A stretch of DNA of 48,406 nt from a virus (taxonomy: Duplodnaviria; Heunggongvirae; Uroviricota; Caudoviricetes), in IMG/VR virus record IMGVR_UViG_2531839448_000004; one strand, given 5' to 3'. The notes beneath the pieces were generated by a model that saw only the letters and a program-made list of their open reading frames with translations, did no database searches and was not told where the DNA came from. Below, one piece after another: positions 3,913 to 40,000 of this stretch (its first letter is position 1; each line of letters opens with the position of its first letter). The translations under genes were made by a program, and so were the position numbers.

Positions 3913-4858
3913 ACGCCCACTGGTTATAAACACACAGCTTGCGATGAAGATTGGCTTAAATGAAGCCATTGTGTTGCAGCAGTTGCATTACTGGTTGAGA
4001 GATACCAATTCCGGCATGGAATGTGATGGTGTTCGCTGGATTTACAACACAACGGAACAATGGCTGGAACAGTTCCCATTCTGGTCAGAGTCAACGTTAA
4101 AGCGCGCGTTTGCAAGTCTGAAAACGCTGGGGCTTTTGCGTTGTGAAAAGCTCAATAAATCAAAGCGCGATATGACCAATTTCTACACGATCAACTACGG
4201 GAGCGAGCTTTTAGATGGTGGCAAATTGAGCGAATCCATCGGTTTAAAATGCGCCGCTCCATCAGGTCAAAATGACACGATGGAAGAGGTCAAAATGAAA
4301 CGCTCCATTGGTTCAAAACGACCCAATGTCATCGGGTCAAAATGGCCTGATGATCTTACAGAGAATACAACAGAGATTACTACAGAGAATAAAAACACTT
4401 TTCGTCCGGAAGCTTCGCAACCGGACCCGCAGACCGCTGAACAGGATTTTTTAACCCGGAACCCCGACGCGGTTGTGTTTAGTGCGAAAAAACGCCAGTG
4501 GGGTAGCAGGGAGGATTTGGCGTGTGCGCAGTGGATTTGGGGGCGGATCGTGAACCTTTACGAACAGGCTGCCAGCGACGATGGAGAGATCATGCGACCA
4601 AAAGAGCCTAACTGGACAGCCTGGGCCAATGACGTGCGCACAATGCGGATGCTGGATGGCAGAAGCCACAGACAAATTTGCGAAATGTTTGGTCGGGTAC
4701 AGCGAGATCAATTCTGGGTAAAAAACATCATGAGCCCGTCAAAACTCCGCGAAAAATGGGACGAACTGGTCATCCGCCTGGGACGTTCACCTGTACAGCG
4801 TTGTGTGAATCATATTTCTGAACCGGATACAGAAATTCCGCCTGGTTTCAGGGGATAA
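3893..4858 (+). CDS. Putative phage replication initiation protein (N-terminal HTH, DnaT-like C-terminal part)
   Basis: MSLLFAERPLVINTQLAMKIGLNEAIVLQQLHYWL... is the winged-helix N-terminus typical of phage replication initiators; located after the cro/cII-like genes. Confidence 0.65.
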   Translation: MSLLFAERPLVINTQLAMKIGLNEAIVLQQLHYWLRDTNSGMECDGVRWIYNTTEQWLEQFPFWSESTLKRAFASLKTLGLLRCEKLNKSKRDMTNFYTINYGSELLDGGKLSESIGLKCAAPSGQNDTMEEVKMKRSIGSKRPNVIGSKWPDDLTENTTEITTENKNTFRPEASQPDPQTAEQDFLTRNPDAVVFSAKKRQWGSREDLACAQWIWGRIVNLYEQAASDDGEIMRPKEPNWTAWANDVRTMRMLDGRSHRQICEMFGRVQRDQFWVKNIMSPSKLREKWDELVIRLGRSPVQRCVNHISEPDTEIPPGFRG

Positions 4859-16407: not shown

Positions 16408-16818
16408 TTAGCGTGGTAAGATCTGTGTAGTTTTCTGGATGCTTTCAGTAAATAGTAATGAGTTATCAAAGGCATAGTAATATCTTTGGTGTTCCTGGAT
16501 ATTTGTAACCCATCGGAAAACTCCTGCTTTAGCAAGATTTTCCCTGTATTGTTGAAATGTGATTTCTTTTGATTTCAACTTATTATAGGAGGTCTCTATA
16601 AGATGTTTGTTTCTGGAGAATTTAACATTTACAACCTTTTTGAGTCCTTTTACTAACACTATGTTGTCGTTTTCTAACACAATGTGAATATTATCTGTGG
16701 CTAAATAGTAAATATAAAGTGAGATATTGTGACGTTTTAGCTCAGAATAAAATAATTCACAGTTTAAATCTTTACGCACTTGATCGAATATTTCTTTAAA
16801 AATGGCAGCCTGAGCCAT
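16408..16818 (-). CDS. ydfO: YdfO (DUF1398 family)
   Basis: [50 protein letters not shown]...; paralogous to the ORF at 48002-48406. Confidence 0.8.
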
Positions 16819-17118
16819 TGGTAAACCTTCCATGTGATACGATGGCGCGTAGTTTGCATTATCGTGTTTATTGTTTCAATCTGGTCTGACCTCTTTGTGT
16901 TTTGTTGATGATTTATGTCAAATATTAAGCCTGTTTTTAATGAATAGTGTTGATTGCGTAACAAAATTGAGCCTTGCTGGCATCCAGGAGGGATATGCAA
17001 CCGACAGATGTATGTAAGGTCGATGTACTCAAACTTTCATACTTTTCCTCTTTTATGCAGTAAGATTTGAAGTAATATTTTAACCGCTAGATGACGAGCA
17101 AACGCATGGAGCGACAAA

Positions 17119-17325
17119 ATGAATAAAGAACAATCTGCTGATGAACTCTCGTTGGATCTGATTCGTGTAAAAAATATGCTTAATAGCACCATTTCTATGA
17201 GTTACCCGGATGTTGTAATTGCATGTATAGAACATCAGGTGTCTCTGGAAGCATTCAGGGCAATTGAGGCAGCGTTGGTGAAGCACGATAAGAATTCGAA
17301 GGATTATTCCCTGGTGGTTGACTGA
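17119..17325 (+). CDS. Hypothetical small protein
   Basis: 68-codon ORF between ydfO and the cos region. Confidence 0.35.
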
Positions 17326-17649
17326 GCACCATAACTGCTAATCATTCAAACTATTTCACCTGTGACAGAGTCAATATCGCATTCTGTCACTGTCAGGCTA
17401 ATACAGAGCTGCAATTCAACTACTGCAATGTCCTCGTAATTAGGTGAATTTACAATATCGTCCTGTTCGGATGCCGGCTGCATTGCTGAAGATGAGGCAT
17501 TTATGGTTCGCATATTTTCCCCTCATGCTCGTCAGTCCTGTGCGTAGGAAGAAACAGGACACTCACACTAATTTGTGTGGGCATGCTGTGATGTCCTTCT
17601 GAATTATTCCTATGCCATTATGTAAAGCGCTGTATCAGATGCTCGTCAC

Positions 17650-17689
17650 GGCTGTCAGGCTGTCAGGCTGTCAGGCTGTCAGGCTGTCG
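17650..17689. repeat. Tandem octamer repeat (GGCTGTCA) x4 plus one variant GGCTGTCG, just upstream of the cosN-like sequence
   Basis: Directly visible: ggctgtca ggctgtca ggctgtca ggctgtca ggctgtcg. Confidence 0.9.
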
Positions 17690-17714
17690 GGTCCTCCCGG
17701 TGGGGGCCCCTGCC

Positions 17715-17734
17715 ACGGGGCGGGAGCGTCGCGG
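17715..17734 (+). other. Candidate cosN (cohesive-end nicking site)
   Basis: ACGGGGCGGGAGCGTCGCGG resembles lambda cosN ACGGGGCGGCGACCTCGCGG (about 15 of 20 positions as recalled) and lies about 180 bp upstream of the small terminase gene. Confidence 0.5.
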
Positions 17735-17913
17735 AGAAAGGCTAGTTTTTGCATTTCCATGGCGGCGGCAGCATGTTTGGTAATTTATTGATAATTAAAA
17801 GTTATTTCTCTTTTTACCTGTACAATATTTTTTTCTCCCTGTCATTAGATCAGTTTACAATTAATTGAAATATATAAATAAACATGATTTTCACCTGCCA
17901 GATGGAGTTGCTT

Positions 17914-18441
17914 ATGTCAAATGTGAGCGGGATCGGTGATGCTTATTACTGGAGTGTTTTTAAAATCGCTGAGGCCTTTGGGCTTCACCGGGACACAGTA
18001 AAAAAACGGCGTCTCGCGGCCAACACTCCTGTGGCTGCGACTGTCAGGGGGAACCCCGTTTACGCCCTGCAGCATGTCGGGCCAGCCCTGTTTAGTGTGA
18101 AGCATGAGGCAGCAGACTCTGTTCATGATCCATCCCGTATGGAGCCGAAAGAGAGAAAGGACTGGTACCAGTCTGAAAATGAAAGGATCAAGCTGGAAAA
18201 GGAGCAGCGAAAACTCATCCCCGTTGATGAAGTAGTCATCGTCTATTCGTCCATGAGAAAGGCTGTCGTCCAGGTTCTGGAGACAATTCCGGATGTTCTT
18301 GAACGCGATTGCGCCCTGACTCCTCAGGCCGTCGGCGTTGTACAGCAGGCAATTGATGACCTGCGATACACTCTTCAGGAAAAATCCTACGAGGCTTGTG
18401 CTGCTGAATTAATTCCTGATGAGGAAGGAGAGAGTCTCTAG
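17914..18441 (+). CDS. nohA: Terminase small subunit (Nu1/NohA-like)
   Basis: MSNVSGIGDAYYWSVFKIAEAFGLHRDTVKKRRLAANTPVAATVRG... winged-helix N-terminus; immediately precedes the large terminase gene. Confidence 0.75.
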   Translation: MSNVSGIGDAYYWSVFKIAEAFGLHRDTVKKRRLAANTPVAATVRGNPVYALQHVGPALFSVKHEAADSVHDPSRMEPKERKDWYQSENERIKLEKEQRKLIPVDEVVIVYSSMRKAVVQVLETIPDVLERDCALTPQAVGVVQQAIDDLRYTLQEKSYEACAAELIPDEEGESL

Positions 18442-18449
18442 GAGGAATA

Positions 18450-20549
18450 ATGGGTTTTTCATCAGCCCGAAATTTGGGAAGGGACATATCGGCAGGATTT
18501 TCCCCACCACGTCGCATGCCGATTTCGGAGGCTGTTAAAAAATTCATGCGTGTTCCCAAGGGGGCTGGTAACTCGGTGCCATGGGATCCTGAACTGACAC
18601 CCTACATCATTGAGCCCATGAACTGCCTGGCATCGCGTGAATACGATGCGGTGATTTTTGTTGGTCCTGCGCGAACAGGGAAGACCATTGGTCTGATCGA
18701 TGGATGGATTGTCTATACCATCGTTTGCGATCCTTCGGACATGCTCGTTGTGCAGATGACCGAAGATAAGGCCCGCGAGCATTCTAAAAAGCGCCTCGAC
18801 AGAACGTTCAGAAGCAGTGCGGCGGTAAAGAAAAGAATGAGTCCACGTCGTAACGACAATAATGTCCATGATAAGACGTTCAGGGATGGCTCGTTCCTTA
18901 AAATTGGTTGGCCCTCGGTCAACATTATGTCGTCGTCGGATTACCGGTTTGTCGCCTTAACCGATTACGACCGTTTTCCGGAGAATATCGACAGCGAGGG
19001 TGATGGTTTCTCCCTGGCCTCAAAACGTACCACCACATTTATGTCCGCCGGGATGACTCTGGTGGAGAGCTCGCCGGGACGTGACATCTGCGACAGCAAA
19101 TGGCGACGTAAGTCGCCTCATGAAGCGCCACCGACGACTGGTATTCTTTCCCTTTACAATCGTGGTGACCGCCGCCGCTGGTACTGGTCATGTCCGCACT
19201 GCGGTGAATATTTTCAGCCAGCCATGGATGCCATGACCGGCTACCGTAATGAACCGGATCCCTTTAAAGCCAGTGAGGCGGCGTATCTACTTTGCCCGCA
19301 CTGCAGCGGCATTATCACTGCGGAGAAAAAGCGTGAGCTCAATAGTGCAGGAGTCTGGTTGCGTGAAGGTCAGGTCATTGATCGTAACGGCAACGTTTCC
19401 GGTGAACCGCGCCGCTCCCGTATCGCCAGTTTCTGGATGGAAGGGCCAGCTGCTGCGTATCAGACCTGGGCGCAACTGGTTTACAAATTACTGACTGCAG
19501 AACAGGAGTATGAAGCGACAGGAAGCGAAGAAACACTCAGGGCGGTTATCAACACCGACTGGGGATTGCCTTATCTTCCTCGTGCCAGCATGGAGCAACG
19601 AAAAAGTGAACTGCTTGAGCAGCGGGCAGAGCCAGTTCCTTCCCGCAGTGTGCCGGATGGCATTAATTTCCTTGTGGCGACAGTGGATGTGCAGGCGGGA
19701 CGTCATCGCCGTTTTGTGGTTCAGGTAACGGGCTATGGCAGCCGTGGCGAACGCTGGATTATTGATCGTTACAACATCACGCAGTCATTGCGCGGTGACA
19801 GCGACGGGGAGAGCCAGCGAATTGATCCGGCCAGCTATCCGGAAGACTGGGATGTCCTGCTGACGGATGTTTTTCATAAAAGCTGGCCGCTGGCCTCCGA
19901 TCCTTCTCAACAAATGCGACTGATGGCAATGGCGGTGGACTCCGGCGGTGAAGACGGGGTCACTGATAATGCCTATAAATTCTGGCGTCGTTGCCGTCGT
20001 GATGGCCTTGGTAAACGTATTTACCTGTTTAAGGGCGACAGCATCCGGCGCGCAAAACTGATCACCCGTACATTCCCTGATAACACCGGACGAACGGGCC
20101 GACGGGCGCAGGCCGCAGGTGATGTGCCGCTCTGGCTTCTTCAGACGGATGCACTGAAAGACCGGGTGAATAACGCGTTATGGCGTGACTCGCCAGGTCC
20201 CGGCTATGTGCATTTCCCTGACTGGCTGGGGAGTTGGTTTTACGACGAACTGACGTATGAAGAGCGGAGCAGTGACGGGAAATGGAGTAAGCCAGGTCGC
20301 GGTGCCAACGAAGCTTTTGACCTGATGGTGTATGCCGAGGCTCTGGTCATTCTGCATGGATACGAAAAGATCCGCTGGCCGGATGCACCGGAGTGGGCGA
20401 GCCGGGAAACCTGGCTGGAGTGTGTCCCGGACAGTACCGAACCGTCACCCACACCGGAACCGGTATCCACGCCTGTTAAAAAACAAAAACGGAAGAAAAC
20501 AGTAACTGACGATGTTAACCCCTGGCTGACTTCCGGAGGATGGTTATGA
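18450..20549 (+). CDS. Terminase large subunit (lambda gpA-like)
   Basis: 699 aa; Walker A VGPARTGKT; overall lambda gpA-like sequence. Confidence 0.9.
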   Translation: MGFSSARNLGRDISAGFSPPRRMPISEAVKKFMRVPKGAGNSVPWDPELTPYIIEPMNCLASREYDAVIFVGPARTGKTIGLIDGWIVYTIVCDPSDMLVVQMTEDKAREHSKKRLDRTFRSSAAVKKRMSPRRNDNNVHDKTFRDGSFLKIGWPSVNIMSSSDYRFVALTDYDRFPENIDSEGDGFSLASKRTTTFMSAGMTLVESSPGRDICDSKWRRKSPHEAPPTTGILSLYNRGDRRRWYWSCPHCGEYFQPAMDAMTGYRNEPDPFKASEAAYLLCPHCSGIITAEKKRELNSAGVWLREGQVIDRNGNVSGEPRRSRIASFWMEGPAAAYQTWAQLVYKLLTAEQEYEATGSEETLRAVINTDWGLPYLPRASMEQRKSELLEQRAEPVPSRSVPDGINFLVATVDVQAGRHRRFVVQVTGYGSRGERWIIDRYNITQSLRGDSDGESQRIDPASYPEDWDVLLTDVFHKSWPLASDPSQQMRLMAMAVDSGGEDGVTDNAYKFWRRCRRDGLGKRIYLFKGDSIRRAKLITRTFPDNTGRTGRRAQAAGDVPLWLLQTDALKDRVNNALWRDSPGPGYVHFPDWLGSWFYDELTYEERSSDGKWSKPGRGANEAFDLMVYAEALVILHGYEKIRWPDAPEWASRETWLECVPDSTEPSPTPEPVSTPVKKQKRKKTVTDDVNPWLTSGGWL

Positions 20550-37041: not shown

Positions 37042-40000
37042 ATGGCAGTAAAGATTTCAGGTGTACTGAAAGACGGTGCAGGTAAACCGGTACAGAACTG
37101 CACAATCCAGCTGAAAGCAAAACGTAACAGCACCACGGTGGTGGTGAACACGCTGGCATCTGAAAATCCGGATGAAGCAGGGCGTTACAGCATGGACGTT
37201 GAGTACGGTCAGTACAGCGTTATTCTGTTGGTGGAAGGATTCCCGCCGTCACATGCCGGGACCATCACAGTGTATGAAGATTCCCGACCCGGTACGCTGA
37301 ATGATTTTCTCGGTGCCATGACGGAGGATGATGCCCGTCCGGAGGCACTGCGCCGTTTTGAGCTGATGGTGGAGGAGGTGGCGCGTAACGCGTCCGTGGT
37401 GGCACAGAACACGGCAGCCGCGAAGAAGTCAGCCAGTGATGCCAGCACATCAGCCCGTGAGGCGGCAACCCATGCGACTGATGCTGCAGGCTCAGCACGC
37501 GCAGCCAGCACGTCAGCCGGACAGGCCGCGTCGTCGGCTCAGTCAGCGTCTTCCAGCGCAGGAACGGCATCAACAAAGGCCAGTGAAGCATCGAAAAGTG
37601 CTGCTGCTGCAGAGTCCTCAAAAAGCGCGGCGGCCACCAGTGCCGGTGCGGCGAAAACGTCAGAAACGAATGCGGCAGCGTCACAACAATCAGCCGCCAC
37701 TTCTGCATCCACCGCGACCACGAAAGCGTCAGAAGCTGCCACCTCAGCCCGGGATGCGGCGGCCTCAAAAGAGGCAGCGAAATCATCAGAAACGAACGCA
37801 TCATCAAGTGCCAGTAGTGCAGCTTCCTCGGCAACGGCGGCAGGAAATTCCGCGAAGGCCGCAAAAACGTCTGAGACGAATGCAGATAACAGCGCACAGG
37901 CGGCAGCGGCCTCACAAACTGCATCGGCAAACTCCGCGACAGCAGCCAAAAAATCAGAAACCAACGCGAAAAATAGCGAGGCAGCAGCAAAGAGCAGCGA
38001 AACAAACGCTAAAGCCAGCGAAACTAATGCTAAATCCAGTGAAACAAACGCGGCGAAATCTGCGGCGGACGCACTTAATTATCGCAACCAGGCGCAAGTA
38101 ATTGTAGGCGATAATATCGGTCTTGGCTCAGCACCGCGTGATTGTCCTGATATTTCCGGCAACCCATCAGGGTATATCGGATTTATGCGCATTATGAGTA
38201 ATGCAAAAGGCTTTCCATCGATTGCATCCGGTGAAAGCAGTCTTACGGGGTTTATTAGTCAGGTAGATGGAACACCAGCGTATACAGGTGTATTTCAGGG
38301 ATGGGCTACGCGCTCGCTTTATACTTATCGCTGGAATCCGACAATAGGCCCGCAGTGGACGCGTCACGCAAGAAAAGATGAAGTGGACAGGCTTACTCAA
38401 CTAACAGGTAATACACGCGTATATTGTCAAAATGCAAGCAAATTTTTTGGTATCTACGATTCAGGAACATGGGGTTATTACGATGCAGAGAATAGCGAAT
38501 GGATTCCGCTTTCGATCGCGGCCGGAGGTACTGGTGCGGCAACTATTGATGGTGCCAGAACGAATCTTGGCTTAGGTAGGAACAACAGCCCTCAACTTAA
38601 CAGTCTATTTCTTGATAGATATAGTGATTCGACCAATACATACACATCTAGTGGAATTCTCCATACAAGACTGTTAGCAACTGACAGCACTGTGCGTCTT
38701 GGTGCTGATATGTATGTTGAGACTTTATCAAATGAGCCAGGTCAATTAACAATAAGGTTTACATACGATGGTTCAACTGGTGCTTCAAAATATCTAAACC
38801 TTAACTCAGAAGGTAATTTAATTGTAGATAGTGCGATACTGAGATCAACGGTTGAAAAACCTTTACAAATAAGGAGCGCTAACCCAGCAATAAGATTTAA
38901 TGAAACAGATCGCCCGGCTAACACGCCTACTTATACTCTCATTGCTAATGCTGGCGACTGGTTTATTCAGAAACGCGATTATGATGATGCCGGAAGCGTT
39001 AGTAACGCAATTGCATATAATTTCGCAAACGACAGAATTGATGTGCAAAATCTTAAAGCGTCTGGGTTAATTACAGCTAACTCAGGAATCGCAACATTAA
39101 CAGGTCATGACTGGAACTCTCAGCATACTGATAACGTCGACAAATTTAGACCAATCGCAGGCAGTACAAACGGCCCGGCAGGCTCTATGGTTCTTGGCGG
39201 CATTCATGTTCAATTTAGTAAAAATTATGCTGTGCAGTTCGGAGGCCGCAATTCCGGTTTTTGGGGAAGAACAATTGAAAATGGAACGACGCAGGAATGG
39301 AAGAAATTACTAACAGTAGACGATCTCAATTCATCTACCGATCTTGCTGTCAGGTCATTAACCACATCTAACCCGGTAAAATCTGGCGGAGGGCGAATTG
39401 ATGTCCTTGGAAGCACGTCAGACTATAGCAAAATGGATTGCTTTGTACGTGGGTTTGATAGCACCGGTAATTCTCTCGCGTGGGCGTTGGGTTCATCAGT
39501 CGGCGTAAGTAAGATGCTGTCGCTAAAAAATTTCTTTAGCGGAGCTGAGATACTGCTAAATGGTAATGACGGCGCGGTTCAACTCAAAACAGGTGCTGTT
39601 AACGGGGCTAAAGCGCAGGCGCTCACTATCAACAAGGATGAGGTTAACTCAACTGTTGATTTAACTCTTACAAAACAAACAGGGACTGGAAATCGTTTTG
39701 TTTTACAGAACTTAGGTAATACAGAACTATCATTTGCCGCAAAAGTATGGGGATCAAGTGATCGACAAAACGTTTTTGAGGTTGGAACGTCTGCTGCGTA
39801 TCTGTTTTATGCGCAAAAAACGTCAGCAGGCCAGTTGTTTGATGTAAATGGCGCTATTAATTGCACAACGCTGAATCAGTCATCAGACCGCGACCTTAAA
39901 GACGATATTCTCGTTATCAGCGACGCGACGAAAGCAATCCGTAAAATGAACGGATACACCTACACGCTCAAGGAAAACGGGATGCCTTATGCTGGCGTTA

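Follow-up and report, generated by a model that had tools for sequence, protein, structure and literature searches.

A copy-number-variable octamer repeat beside cosQ in the predicted cos site of a Tritos-like lambdoid prophage

Introduction

The DNA analysed here, an IMG/VR virus record of 48,406 nucleotides (hereafter the window), carries five tandem octamers immediately upstream of a sequence that resembles the cohesive-end site of phage lambda. The locus raises the question of what such an array does beside a packaging site. The original prediction, made from the sequence of the window, was that it may be an element like cosQ or some other array of protein-binding sites. Our analysis suggests a different answer: we consider it probable that the octamers are a slippage-prone short tandem repeat of variable copy number, situated just outside the conserved cos core, and that packaging does not require its extra copies.

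Results

The cos site

Its sequence identifies the region as the cos site of an E. coli prophage of the lambdoid, Tritos-like kind, with the layout of lambda (Table 1). The predicted cosN-like 20-mer with a lambda-type cohesive end is borne out. The assignment draws on the cosQ heptamer and its spacing, on the first six base pairs of the overhang and the CG dinucleotides at both nicks, which are identical to those of lambda, on the ends of deposited phage records, and on a large terminase subunit of the gpA family. The likeness to lambda further includes an AT-rich interval with an IHF consensus. The cosN context reads CACG, GGGCGGGAGCGT, CGCGG in the window versus TACG, GGGCGGCGACCT, CGCGG in lambda. 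The heptamer lies 29 nt from the predicted top-strand nick, versus 30 nt in lambda by alignment. GGGTCCT is retained in all sampled lambda-like cos cores, and the 7-bp cosQ has been described as highly conserved (PMC4669245).

The predicted 12-nt 5' cohesive end, GGGCGGGAGCGT, comprises positions 17718-17729, with predicted nicks after 17717 on the top strand and after 17729 on the bottom strand. We infer these positions from the sequence together with record boundaries: the record of phage Tritos (OV696610) ends at the base corresponding to window position 17717 and begins with GGGCGGGAGCGT, and the record of the cdtI phage (AB285204) begins at the base corresponding to 17718. Identity of overhang bp 1-6 and CG dinucleotides flanking the nicks, the features used to recognize a lambda-like cos (PMC4669245), are both present. 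The differences from lambda are confined to bp 7-12 of the overhang (window GAGCGT versus lambda CGACCT, differing at bp 7, 8, 9 and 11), a part in which natural variation is common (PMC4669245). As a text string in the literature, the overhang retrieved unrelated matches only. Tritos, cdtI, mEp460 and mEp460_ev081, HannyBb and PhiR40_1 share the cosQ-cosN core and the overhang of the window.

Table 1. Features in and around the predicted cos site (positions in the window).
Feature	Position	Strand	Remarks
Inverted repeat GTGACAGA-N13-TCTGTCAC	17362-17369 and 17383-17390	.	outside cos
Inverted repeat GTCCTGT-N12-ACAGGAC	17535-17541 and 17554-17560	.	outside cos
Degenerate 9-bp repeat-like unit GCTCGTCAC	17641-17649	+	directly 5' of the array
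Four perfect GGCTGTCA units, expandable tract	17650-17681	+	relatives have 0-4 before the terminal GGCTGTCG
Terminal variant unit GGCTGTCG	17682-17689	+	in all loci of the lineage; GGCTGACG in the mEp460 group
cosQ homologue GGGTCCT (putative packaging-termination subsite)	17689-17695	+	heptamer identical to that of lambda; function predicted by homology
cosN: CG, GGGCGGGAGCGT, CG (predicted)	17716-17731	.	alignment to lambda cosN; Tritos and cdtI record boundaries
I2/cosB-equivalent interval, type A	17732-17901	+	between cosN and terS, AT-rich
Small terminase subunit gene terS (DUF1441 family)	17902-18441	+	Pfam PF07278, E = 6e-44
Large terminase subunit gene (lambda gpA family TerL)	18450-20549	+	Pfam GpA_ATPase E = 4e-80, GpA_nuclease E = 4e-86

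The cosB-equivalent interval is lambda-like in length (about 170 bp, with the TerS start at bp 185 versus 191 in lambda), and its GC content falls to 26-33%. It contains an IHF consensus on the minus strand (17781-17793, bp +64 to +76 from the nick), one of five matches in the window. A scan for R sites gave weak candidate repeats only, without a definable R consensus. The small terminase subunit is identical to that of Tritos at 174 of 175 positions, and an alternative start at 17914 yields the 175-residue form annotated in Tritos and RefSeq. In contrast to lambda, the protein belongs to DUF1441, and a BLASTP comparison with Nu1 found no similarity. Three alternative cosB intervals and TerS N-terminal domains (types A, B and C) are found behind the same cosN. 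The window and Tritos have type A (TerS 99% identical, with a left arm 99.8% identical), mEp460 and mEp460_ev081 have type B, and PhiR40_1 has type C.

Anatomy of the array

The predicted octamer array beside cos is real and directly observed: four copies of GGCTGTCA, starting at 17650, 17658, 17666 and 17674, are followed by the variant GGCTGTCG. Tandem Repeats Finder reports a period of 8 bp with 5.4 copies and 97% matches (17645-17688). Exact copies of GGCTGTCA number seven in the window versus 1.6 expected, and by simple arithmetic the chance of four perfect head-to-tail octamers in 48 kb is about 1e-10. The array always adjoins cosQ at a fixed distance from cosN, the last G of the terminal unit being also the first G of cosQ, and an expansion shifts only upstream DNA. 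This side corresponds to the future right end of the packaged chromosome. The degenerate unit GCTCGTCAC never takes part in copy-number change, and its TCGTCA core is retained in the diverged lineages of mEp460, PhiR40_1 and L133.

Both inverted repeats that had been noted further upstream exist, with coordinates slightly off in the original prediction (17541-17565, for example, for what is 17535-17560). The GTGACAGA/TCTGTCAC repeat is conserved in the homologous segment of lambda, about 500 bp from lambda cos. The GTCCTGT/ACAGGAC repeat is a widespread lambdoid hairpin motif; many lambdoid contigs, lambda among them, have it in the forms GTCCGGT...ACCGGAC and CCGGT...ACCGG.

Copy-number variation

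Across about 180 related cos loci, most of them prophages, the number of units ranges from 1 to 5. Among 105 loci from IMG/VR and the phage set, which have a 46-nt cosQ-cosN core in common, one unit occurs in 2, two in 76, three in 23, four in 2 and five in 2. Seventy-five independent metagenome loci have two (59), three (13) or four (3) units. The two five-unit loci are the window and L103, which represent one lineage, as their identity over 13.8 kb is 99.96%. No cosQ-adjacent array of five or more units was found in 241 million metagenome records, and the top match among 5,426 complete E. coli genomes has four. Five units is thus the longest allele seen so far. That the five-unit array is an artefact of assembly or sequencing has a negligible probability: some platforms can miscount short tandem repeats, but 40 bases fit well inside single reads, the independent record L103 has the same five units, and alleles of one to four units occur in dozens of independent assemblies.

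The polymorphism can be seen directly in identical backgrounds. Fourteen loci with an identical left flank of 300 nt and an identical core have one, two, three, four and five units, and alleles with three and four units were found on two flank haplotypes, CGTCAC and CATCAC. Its dependence on purity is equally direct. Where the first unit is interrupted, as GGTTGTCA, the number is exactly two in 99 of 99 loci (54 + 45), although their flanks are of several haplotypes and each of the three cosB types is represented. In the pure lineage, one unit is found in 2 loci, two in 36, three in 36, four in 5 and five in 2. The fixed number in all GGTTGTCA loci is the pattern expected from replication slippage. 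Among deposited phage genomes, Tritos, which forms plaques (PMC9928086), has three units; HannyBb, mEp460_ev081, mEp460 and PhiR40_1 have two each, as does cdtI, in some of these phages with GGTTGTCA or AGCTGTCA/GGCTGACG. A cross-species scan of GTDB gave mostly lambda contamination and chance matches; the informative loci were L113, L115, L118, L120 and L133.

The array has the properties of a short tandem repeat, one that we take to be non-coding, namely perfect head-to-tail units, polymorphism with identical flanks, and instability tied to purity. From this pattern we infer slippage as the mechanism and, from the natural variation, neutrality of the extra copies. The ancestral state would have been an imperfect direct repeat of two units, from which 8-bp units would be gained or lost when the replicating strands mispair by slippage or exchange unequally. 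The extra units would be dispensable for packaging, and five units would simply be the longest allele so far. Unit numbers cluster at two and three; mutation bias could account for this, but so could weak selection. At least about 1.5-2 units and an invariant GTCAGGCTG are present in every lineage with the element, including those diverged by 10-15%. Since basal units are kept in every lineage, a role for these may exist.

Relation to cosQ and terminase

The proposal that the repeat resembles cosQ or binds some other protein is not supported: the real cosQ homologue adjoins the array, unit number varies from one to five, there is no co-variation with TerS or cosB, cosB holds no further copies, and the array is absent from prophages with identical TerS. 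As a candidate cosQ, the octamer array was rejected because of this copy-number range, the true heptamer alongside, and a match between octamer and cosQ heptamer at only 3 of 7 positions.

It is also very unlikely that the octamers are R-type binding sites of the small terminase subunit left of cosN, comparable to R4 and aiding assembly of the nicking complex. They are repeated and lie within 70 bp of cosN, and the hexamer CTGTCA is found again within the cosB interval (17839) and within terS (18041). However, this left arm occurs, whatever its unit number, together with three TerS types with differing N-terminal DNA-binding domains and cosB, and unit number showed no association with TerS or cosB type in the IMG/VR, phage and metagenome loci; independence from terminase type is thus a direct observation. 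Octamers with at most one mismatch are not enriched in the neighbourhood (17000-18500 outside the array: 2 in 1.5 kb versus about 1.4 expected). Lambda, which has a different TerS and lacks the array, nevertheless shares the CTGTCA pair at 17384/17390. Among prophages encoding an identical TerS protein (WP_001389340.1), some have four units or diverged ones, others a Fur-like palindrome in place of the units, and others neither. The spacing between R sites and cosN is critical in lambda (PMC9026076), whereas every unit but the last moves by 8 bp with each expansion.

Two related candidates were set aside. A dispersed CTGTCA recognition code was post hoc; its apparent enrichment at cos disappeared with the full octamer, and the cluster at 17363/17384/17390 is conserved in lambda. 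A copy of ACTGTCAGG inside terS occurs at differing positions in types A and B and is missing in type C, and was taken as coincidence.

Reading frames and transcription

An ATG-initiated ORF of 59 codons (17612-17791) runs across the array. Since 8 is not divisible by 3, changes in unit number shift its frame, and the array might then be a contingency tract that switches this frame or alters the spacing of a terminase promoter. The automatic annotation of HannyBb places small hypothetical genes at the array. This reading is extremely improbable: the ORF extends through cosN, its product has no Pfam match, its C-terminal part is wholly different for each unit number and cosB type (all frames are open for just 33-80 codons), and no promoter-like site was found near the array. 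A coding or phase-variation role was rejected because the ORF is not conserved across alleles. The late genes of lambda are transcribed from an upstream late promoter through cos. The array region gave no promoter, no terminator and no Rfam match, and its single-strand fold is not unusual (z = -1.5).

A possible accessory function

A functional accessory of cos would be an extension of cosQ, a binding or pausing track that terminase encounters during translocation shortly before it reaches cosQ, or a site for a DNA-binding protein of host or phage, replacing the Fur-box palindrome found elsewhere, with unit number tuning termination or occupancy. We regard this as unlikely, although several observations are in its favour. 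The position of the array next to cosQ, and thus its distance from cosN, is constant, and the core GTCAGGCTG is invariant in all lineages bearing the element, diverged ones included. In about half of the other lambda-like cos cores, a conserved palindrome lies 3-9 bp left of cosQ in otherwise unrelated flanks. Fur binds the equivalent site upstream of nohA in vitro (PMC2189734), and together with the cosQ-side palindromes this indicates that the position can carry a protein site. Tandem 8-bp operators with cooperative binding are known as well, namely the metboxes of MetJ.

Against an accessory function, identical backgrounds tolerate anything from one to five units, and the element is missing in prophages with identical TerS and the same cosQ and cosN. 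The units are no more conserved than flanking non-coding DNA (about 3 of 15 versus 3 of 12 variable positions), and in PICI-type cos cores a terminator hairpin lies directly at cosQ. None of the regulator consensus sequences considered is matched: agreement is at 3 of 8 positions for the metbox and at 5 of 8 for Chi, while copies of the Pho-box half-site CTGTCA are spaced by 8 instead of 11 bp. By analogy, the octamers might more specifically be an operator-like array in 8-bp register that binds a factor of host or phage origin, or a track on which the translocating terminase pauses, replacing the Fur-box palindrome, with unit number acting as a heritable rheostat for termination or right-end handling; such an arrangement appears decidedly improbable. 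If a functional reading were true, the array would be a new and tunable subsite of cos.

Known motifs were considered individually. MetJ metboxes are tandem 8-bp boxes in two to five copies that are bound cooperatively. The window octamers share the tandem 8-bp register and the range of copies, but are unrelated in sequence (3 of 8 positions match AGACGTCT) and lack an adjacent regulated promoter, so that metboxes serve as an analogy only. The Pho box consists of CTGTCAT direct repeats with 11-bp spacing, and PhoB was rejected because the octamers are spaced by 8 bp. Allowing up to three mismatches, no match to the Fur box GATAATGATAATCATTATC was found anywhere in the window. Chi (GCTGGTGG) was rejected, since GCTGTCAG matches at only 5 of 8 positions and the true Chi sites are kilobases away (9602, 9659 and 14225 on the plus strand; 10192 and 10244 on the minus strand); the idea of Chi activity for RecBCD entering the right end comes from PMC12315714.

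Discussion

The short-tandem-repeat reading accounts for the array as a bacterial or phage VNTR, with which it has in common perfect units, polymorphism, stable interrupted arrays and a skew to low numbers. Classical contingency loci differ in that they switch gene expression from within a promoter or reading frame; no gene or promoter is affected here. A hypervariable repeat beside an ordinary cos site is a minor and apparently undescribed feature, and a search of the literature for the octamer repeat as a text string gave no match. The result is mainly one of annotation: cos site, cohesive end and cosQ homologue are now assigned for a prophage family whose sequence in the cos region is matched, at least partly, in 1,204 of 5,426 complete E. 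coli genomes. The tract, less than 70 bp from the virion right end, is also a naturally hypervariable marker that could be used for fine typing of Tritos-like prophages, and a natural experiment on the weight of the sequence left of cosQ for termination.

The repeat had been called unusual for lying on this side of cosN, opposite to the R sites of lambda. This needs qualification, as what lies to the left of cosQ simply differs from one lambda-like cos site to another: it can be a Fur-box palindrome, a terminator hairpin, octamers, or nothing recognizable. The conserved cos core stops at cosQ. Lambda itself has a Fur-box-like palindrome where the window has octamers.

About half of the other lambda-like cos sites have a Fur-box palindrome, within about 10-35 bp left of cosQ. 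It resembles the octamers in its place left of cosQ and in being an island in otherwise unrelated flanks, but differs in structure: it is a 13-bp palindrome, GATAATCATTATC, agreeing with 15-18 of 19 positions of the Fur consensus, whereas the octamers of the window repeat directly and have no known binder. Such a conserved palindrome beside cosQ hints that the position can carry function. Such a Fur site lies upstream of nohA and nohB in cryptic prophages of E. coli K-12; the study that reported Fur binding to the nohA site treats it as a promoter site of nohA, with no mention of cos or lambda (PMC2189734). The Fur box as a frequent neighbour of cosQ may interest specialists in packaging and iron regulation more than the repeat itself.

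The cos site and the adjoining array

The cos site in the window belongs to the lambda-like cos family; databases already open the Tritos and cdtI genomes at this same cos. A megablast search of window 17300-17900 against phage genomes served as the anchor: phage Tritos, deposited as a linear record (OV696610) that opens with GGGCGGGAGCGTCGCGG, has window base 17717 as its last base, and the record of phage cdtI (AB285204) has base 17718 as its first. The junction reads ...TTTAC GGGTCCT TTCCGGTGATCCGACAGGTTACG / GGGCGGCGACCT / CGCGGG in lambda and ...CTGTC GGGTCCT CCCGGTGGGGGCCCCTGCCACG / GGGCGGGAGCGT / CGCGGA in the window, slashes marking nicks (predicted ones in the window). Common to both are the heptamer GGGTCCT, 30 nt before the nick in lambda and 29 nt in the window, and a CG dinucleotide on either side of the overhang; overhang bp 1-6 are identical, and all four differences lie within bp 7-12. 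This is exactly the pattern that Feiss and co-workers described for lambda-like phages, with variable bp 7-12 and constant flanking CG pairs and 7-bp cosQ (PMC4669245). The cosN and cohesive end of the original prediction are hence well supported by homology to lambda and by the Tritos and cdtI record boundaries. Terminase would nick the top strand at 17717/17718 and the bottom strand after 17729, and cosQ would serve packaging termination, as in lambda. An AT-rich interval of ~170 bp lies 3' of cosN; it includes an IHF-consensus match (bp +64 to +76, counted from the nick), and the whole window has only five of these. The terminase genes follow (Table). TerS is identical at 174/175 positions to that of Tritos, a plaque-forming siphovirus isolated from E. 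coli LF82 (PMC9928086).

The octamer repeat noticed originally is real (period 8, 5.4 copies, 97% matches in Tandem Repeats Finder, TRF), and four perfect head-to-tail octamers within 48 kb cannot have arisen by chance. The array sits immediately outside the conserved cos core; in the packaged chromosome it lies 30-70 bp from the right end. It is not the cosQ-like element once suggested, because the true cosQ homologue is a heptamer that overlaps the last unit by one G. TRF also lists three other short tandem repeats in the window.

Table. Coordinates of features in the window and in compared loci
Feature	Position	Strand	Remarks
Array, cosQ and cosN	17636-17735	+	CAGATGCTCGTCAC 4x GGCTGTCA then GGCTGTCG GGTCCTCCCGGTGGGGGCCCCTGCCACG GGGCGGGAGCGT CGCGGA
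Octamer array	17650-17689		four exact units, one variant
Exact octamers GGCTGTCA	starts 17650, 17658, 17666, 17674	+	exact-match search
Variant last unit GGCTGTCG	17682-17689	+	read from sequence
cosQ heptamer	17689-17695		shares one G with last unit
DUF1441 small terminase (TerS)	start bp 185 from nick		after AT-rich interval; lambda Nu1 start 191
Large terminase (TerL)	after TerS		both gpA Pfam domains matched
Inverted repeat GTGACAGA/TCTGTCAC	17362-17369/17383-17390		to 17395 with CTGTCAGG
Hairpin GTCCTGT-N12-ACAGGAC	17535-17541/17554-17560		
Other TRF repeat	37995-38051		21-bp unit x 2.7
Other TRF repeat	4358-4391		12-bp unit x 2.8
Other TRF repeat	16644-16685		21-bp unit x 2.0
Chi octamers	9602, 9659, 14225	+	
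Chi octamers	10192, 10244	-	
Fur-box-like palindrome, lambda	J02459 48447-48465 (L108)		16/19 vs Fur-box consensus
Other palindrome loci	L134-L138; L219; L223-L342		last group ~120 IMG/VR loci
Two inverted cos cores each	L343, L353, L358, L382, L401, L405		
Three direct cos cores	L007: 67, 8202, 10738		

Unit-number polymorphism

Searching IMG/VR with the 46-nt cosQ-cosN core yielded 102 loci, to which phage records and the window were added. Two units predominate in this first sample (76 loci), either pure (GGCTGTCA-GGCTGTCG, 22 loci) or with an interrupted first unit (GGTTGTCA-GGCTGTCG, 54 loci); three units are found at 23 loci, and one, four and five units at two loci each. The two five-unit records, the window and IMG/VR record L103, represent one lineage, since they are 99.96% identical over 13.8 kb. 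A second, independent sample of 75 metagenome loci comprises 14 pure and 45 interrupted two-unit arrays, 13 arrays of three units and 3 of four. No array of at least five units adjoining cosQ occurs in 241 million metagenome records, and the highest number among 5,426 complete E. coli genomes is four. Within IMG/VR, arrays of at least four units are confined to the cosQ-adjoining context. The window array is the largest known expansion of the two-unit repeat.

All unit numbers from one to five occur among 14 loci with identical 300-nt left flank and core, and three- and four-unit alleles are found on two different flank haplotypes. The polymorphism depends on repeat purity: none of the 99 loci with an interrupted first unit varies in unit number, even though all three cosB types and several flank haplotypes are represented. 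Because identical flanks carry one to five units and interrupted arrays are invariant, the pattern suggests slipped-strand mispairing, not descent or selection, as the source of the variation. Array length would change via replication slippage or unequal exchange, presumably without consequence for packaging. The ancestral state is an imperfect two-unit repeat, as the diverged relatives mEp460, Ayreon, PhiR40_1 and a soil MAG keep two units (AGCTGTCA or GGCTGTCA, then GGCTGACG). Simple-sequence repeats are a familiar kind of element, and this is one of them; a literature search found its sequence in no paper.

Tests of a protein-binding role

One left arm with its cosQ-cosN core occurs in combination with three right arms, types A (window 17732-18441), B (loci L006/L007) and C (loci L038/L041), whose cosB DNA and TerS N-terminal, DNA-binding domains differ; TerS C-termini and TerL are related. 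The arrangement mirrors that of lambda and phage 21, and the types look like three packaging specificities that may reassort by recombination within the conserved core. The array is independent of terminase type: all unit-number classes were seen with types A and B, and both left-arm variants with types A, B and C. To the left of cosQ, E. coli prophages with identical TerS (WP_001389340.1) and a shared cosQ-cosN differ widely: there are cases with four units, with two units of the diverged form, with a GATAATCAC... palindrome but no octamer, and with neither. Elsewhere around cos, there is no excess of octamers with at most one mismatch. These three results speak against the protein-binding array proposed originally. 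With expansion, the distance to cosN changes by multiples of 8 bp for all units except the last, yet in lambda the spacing from R site to cosN is critical (PMC9026076), which disfavours reading the units as R sites. Viable phages are known with two and with three units. Every element-bearing lineage retains at least ~1.5 units with an invariant GTCAGGCTG; this is weak functional evidence, because the non-coding DNA around it is conserved to about the same degree. Several tests argue against a site for terminase or another protein; we consider a functional role of the octamers, all versions together, unlikely, and a tunable operator or pausing track very unlikely.

Other candidates were rejected. 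A 59-codon ORF spans the array and runs on through cosN, matches no family, and differs in frame and C-terminal part between unit numbers and between cosB types; the octamer sequence is not Chi; and CTGTCA hexamers at 17363, 17384 and 17390, considered as recognition sites, are kept in lambda, which has a different TerS and no array. Around the array, neither a promoter- or terminator-like site nor an Rfam match was found, and the single-strand fold is not unusual.

Both inverted repeats described left of cos are present. Variants of the hairpin at 17535-17560, GTCCGGT...ACCGGAC or CCGGT...ACCGG, are found in many lambdoid contigs, among them a lambda-derived contig (L110) and IMG/VR loci L232, L223, L263 and L264; the loop end GGAAGAA is conserved, changes on both sides preserve the stem, and no T-run follows. 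The other inverted repeat, which has no obvious role, is kept together with the CTGTCAGG after it in the homologous lambda segment, where alignment places it just right of a ybcW-like ORF.

A Fur-box palindrome beside cosQ in other phages

A less biased sampling of lambda-like cos cores comprised 86 non-redundant loci. In 42 of them the palindrome GATAATCATTATC (at least 11/13 matches) lies within 34 nt left of cosQ, and seven have octamers; the remaining cores have other sequences, including GC hairpin and T-run terminators ending right at cosQ. This 13-bp palindrome is located 3-9 bp left of cosQ in lambda, mEp213, Klebsiella phage Kp4865-4 and many others. A palindrome-required search returned more than 120 loci in at least 20 unrelated upstream contexts, with 15-18/19 matches to the Fur-box consensus GATAATGATAATCATTATC; the palindrome forms an island within otherwise unrelated flanks. 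In gel shifts, Chen et al. found that Fur binds a site 233 bp upstream of nohA, which is the Qin prophage's Nu1 homologue; they also predicted a strong Fur cluster 133 bp upstream of nohB. Their paper (PMC2189734) nowhere mentions cos or lambda. The position of the palindrome fits the nohA site; no link between Fur and cos was found in the literature that could be searched. Given the frequency of the palindrome and the gel shift upstream of nohA, the position next to cosQ can accommodate a genuine protein site; in the window lineage, octamers stand there instead. The Fur-box neighbour is a more intriguing by-product than the repeat, though the window contains no Fur box.

Further observations around cos

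The evolved phage mEp460_ev081 (L003, ~1909-2100) has a ~100-bp tandem duplication of the cosB interval directly after cosN, the stretch GGCTAGTTTTTGAAATTTCATCCGTCATCACC...GATTGTTTTTTGT being present twice. In some IMG/VR contigs, a few kb hold two or even three lambda-like cosQ-cosN cores, and several of the cores have a GC hairpin and T-run in front that ends right at cosQ; they resemble the PICI elements with two cos reported by Fillol-Salom et al. (PMC6739421). The window has five Chi octamers. Four of them form two pairs, one on each strand, with ~55 bp between the members of a pair and both pairs inside a 650-bp stretch. All three top-strand sites lie in the part forming the right arm of the virion chromosome; Tritos-class phages are reported to be Chi-rich and without anti-RecBCD (PMC12315714). 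The lambda cos-end sequence also appears in assemblies of unrelated taxa (L110, L111, L114, L119, L121, L125, L127, L129, L130), among them Oceanobacillus, Shewanella, Leeuwenhoekiella, Raphidiopsis, an Alicyclobacillus 'plasmid' and several MAGs, most likely as lambda DNA contamination.
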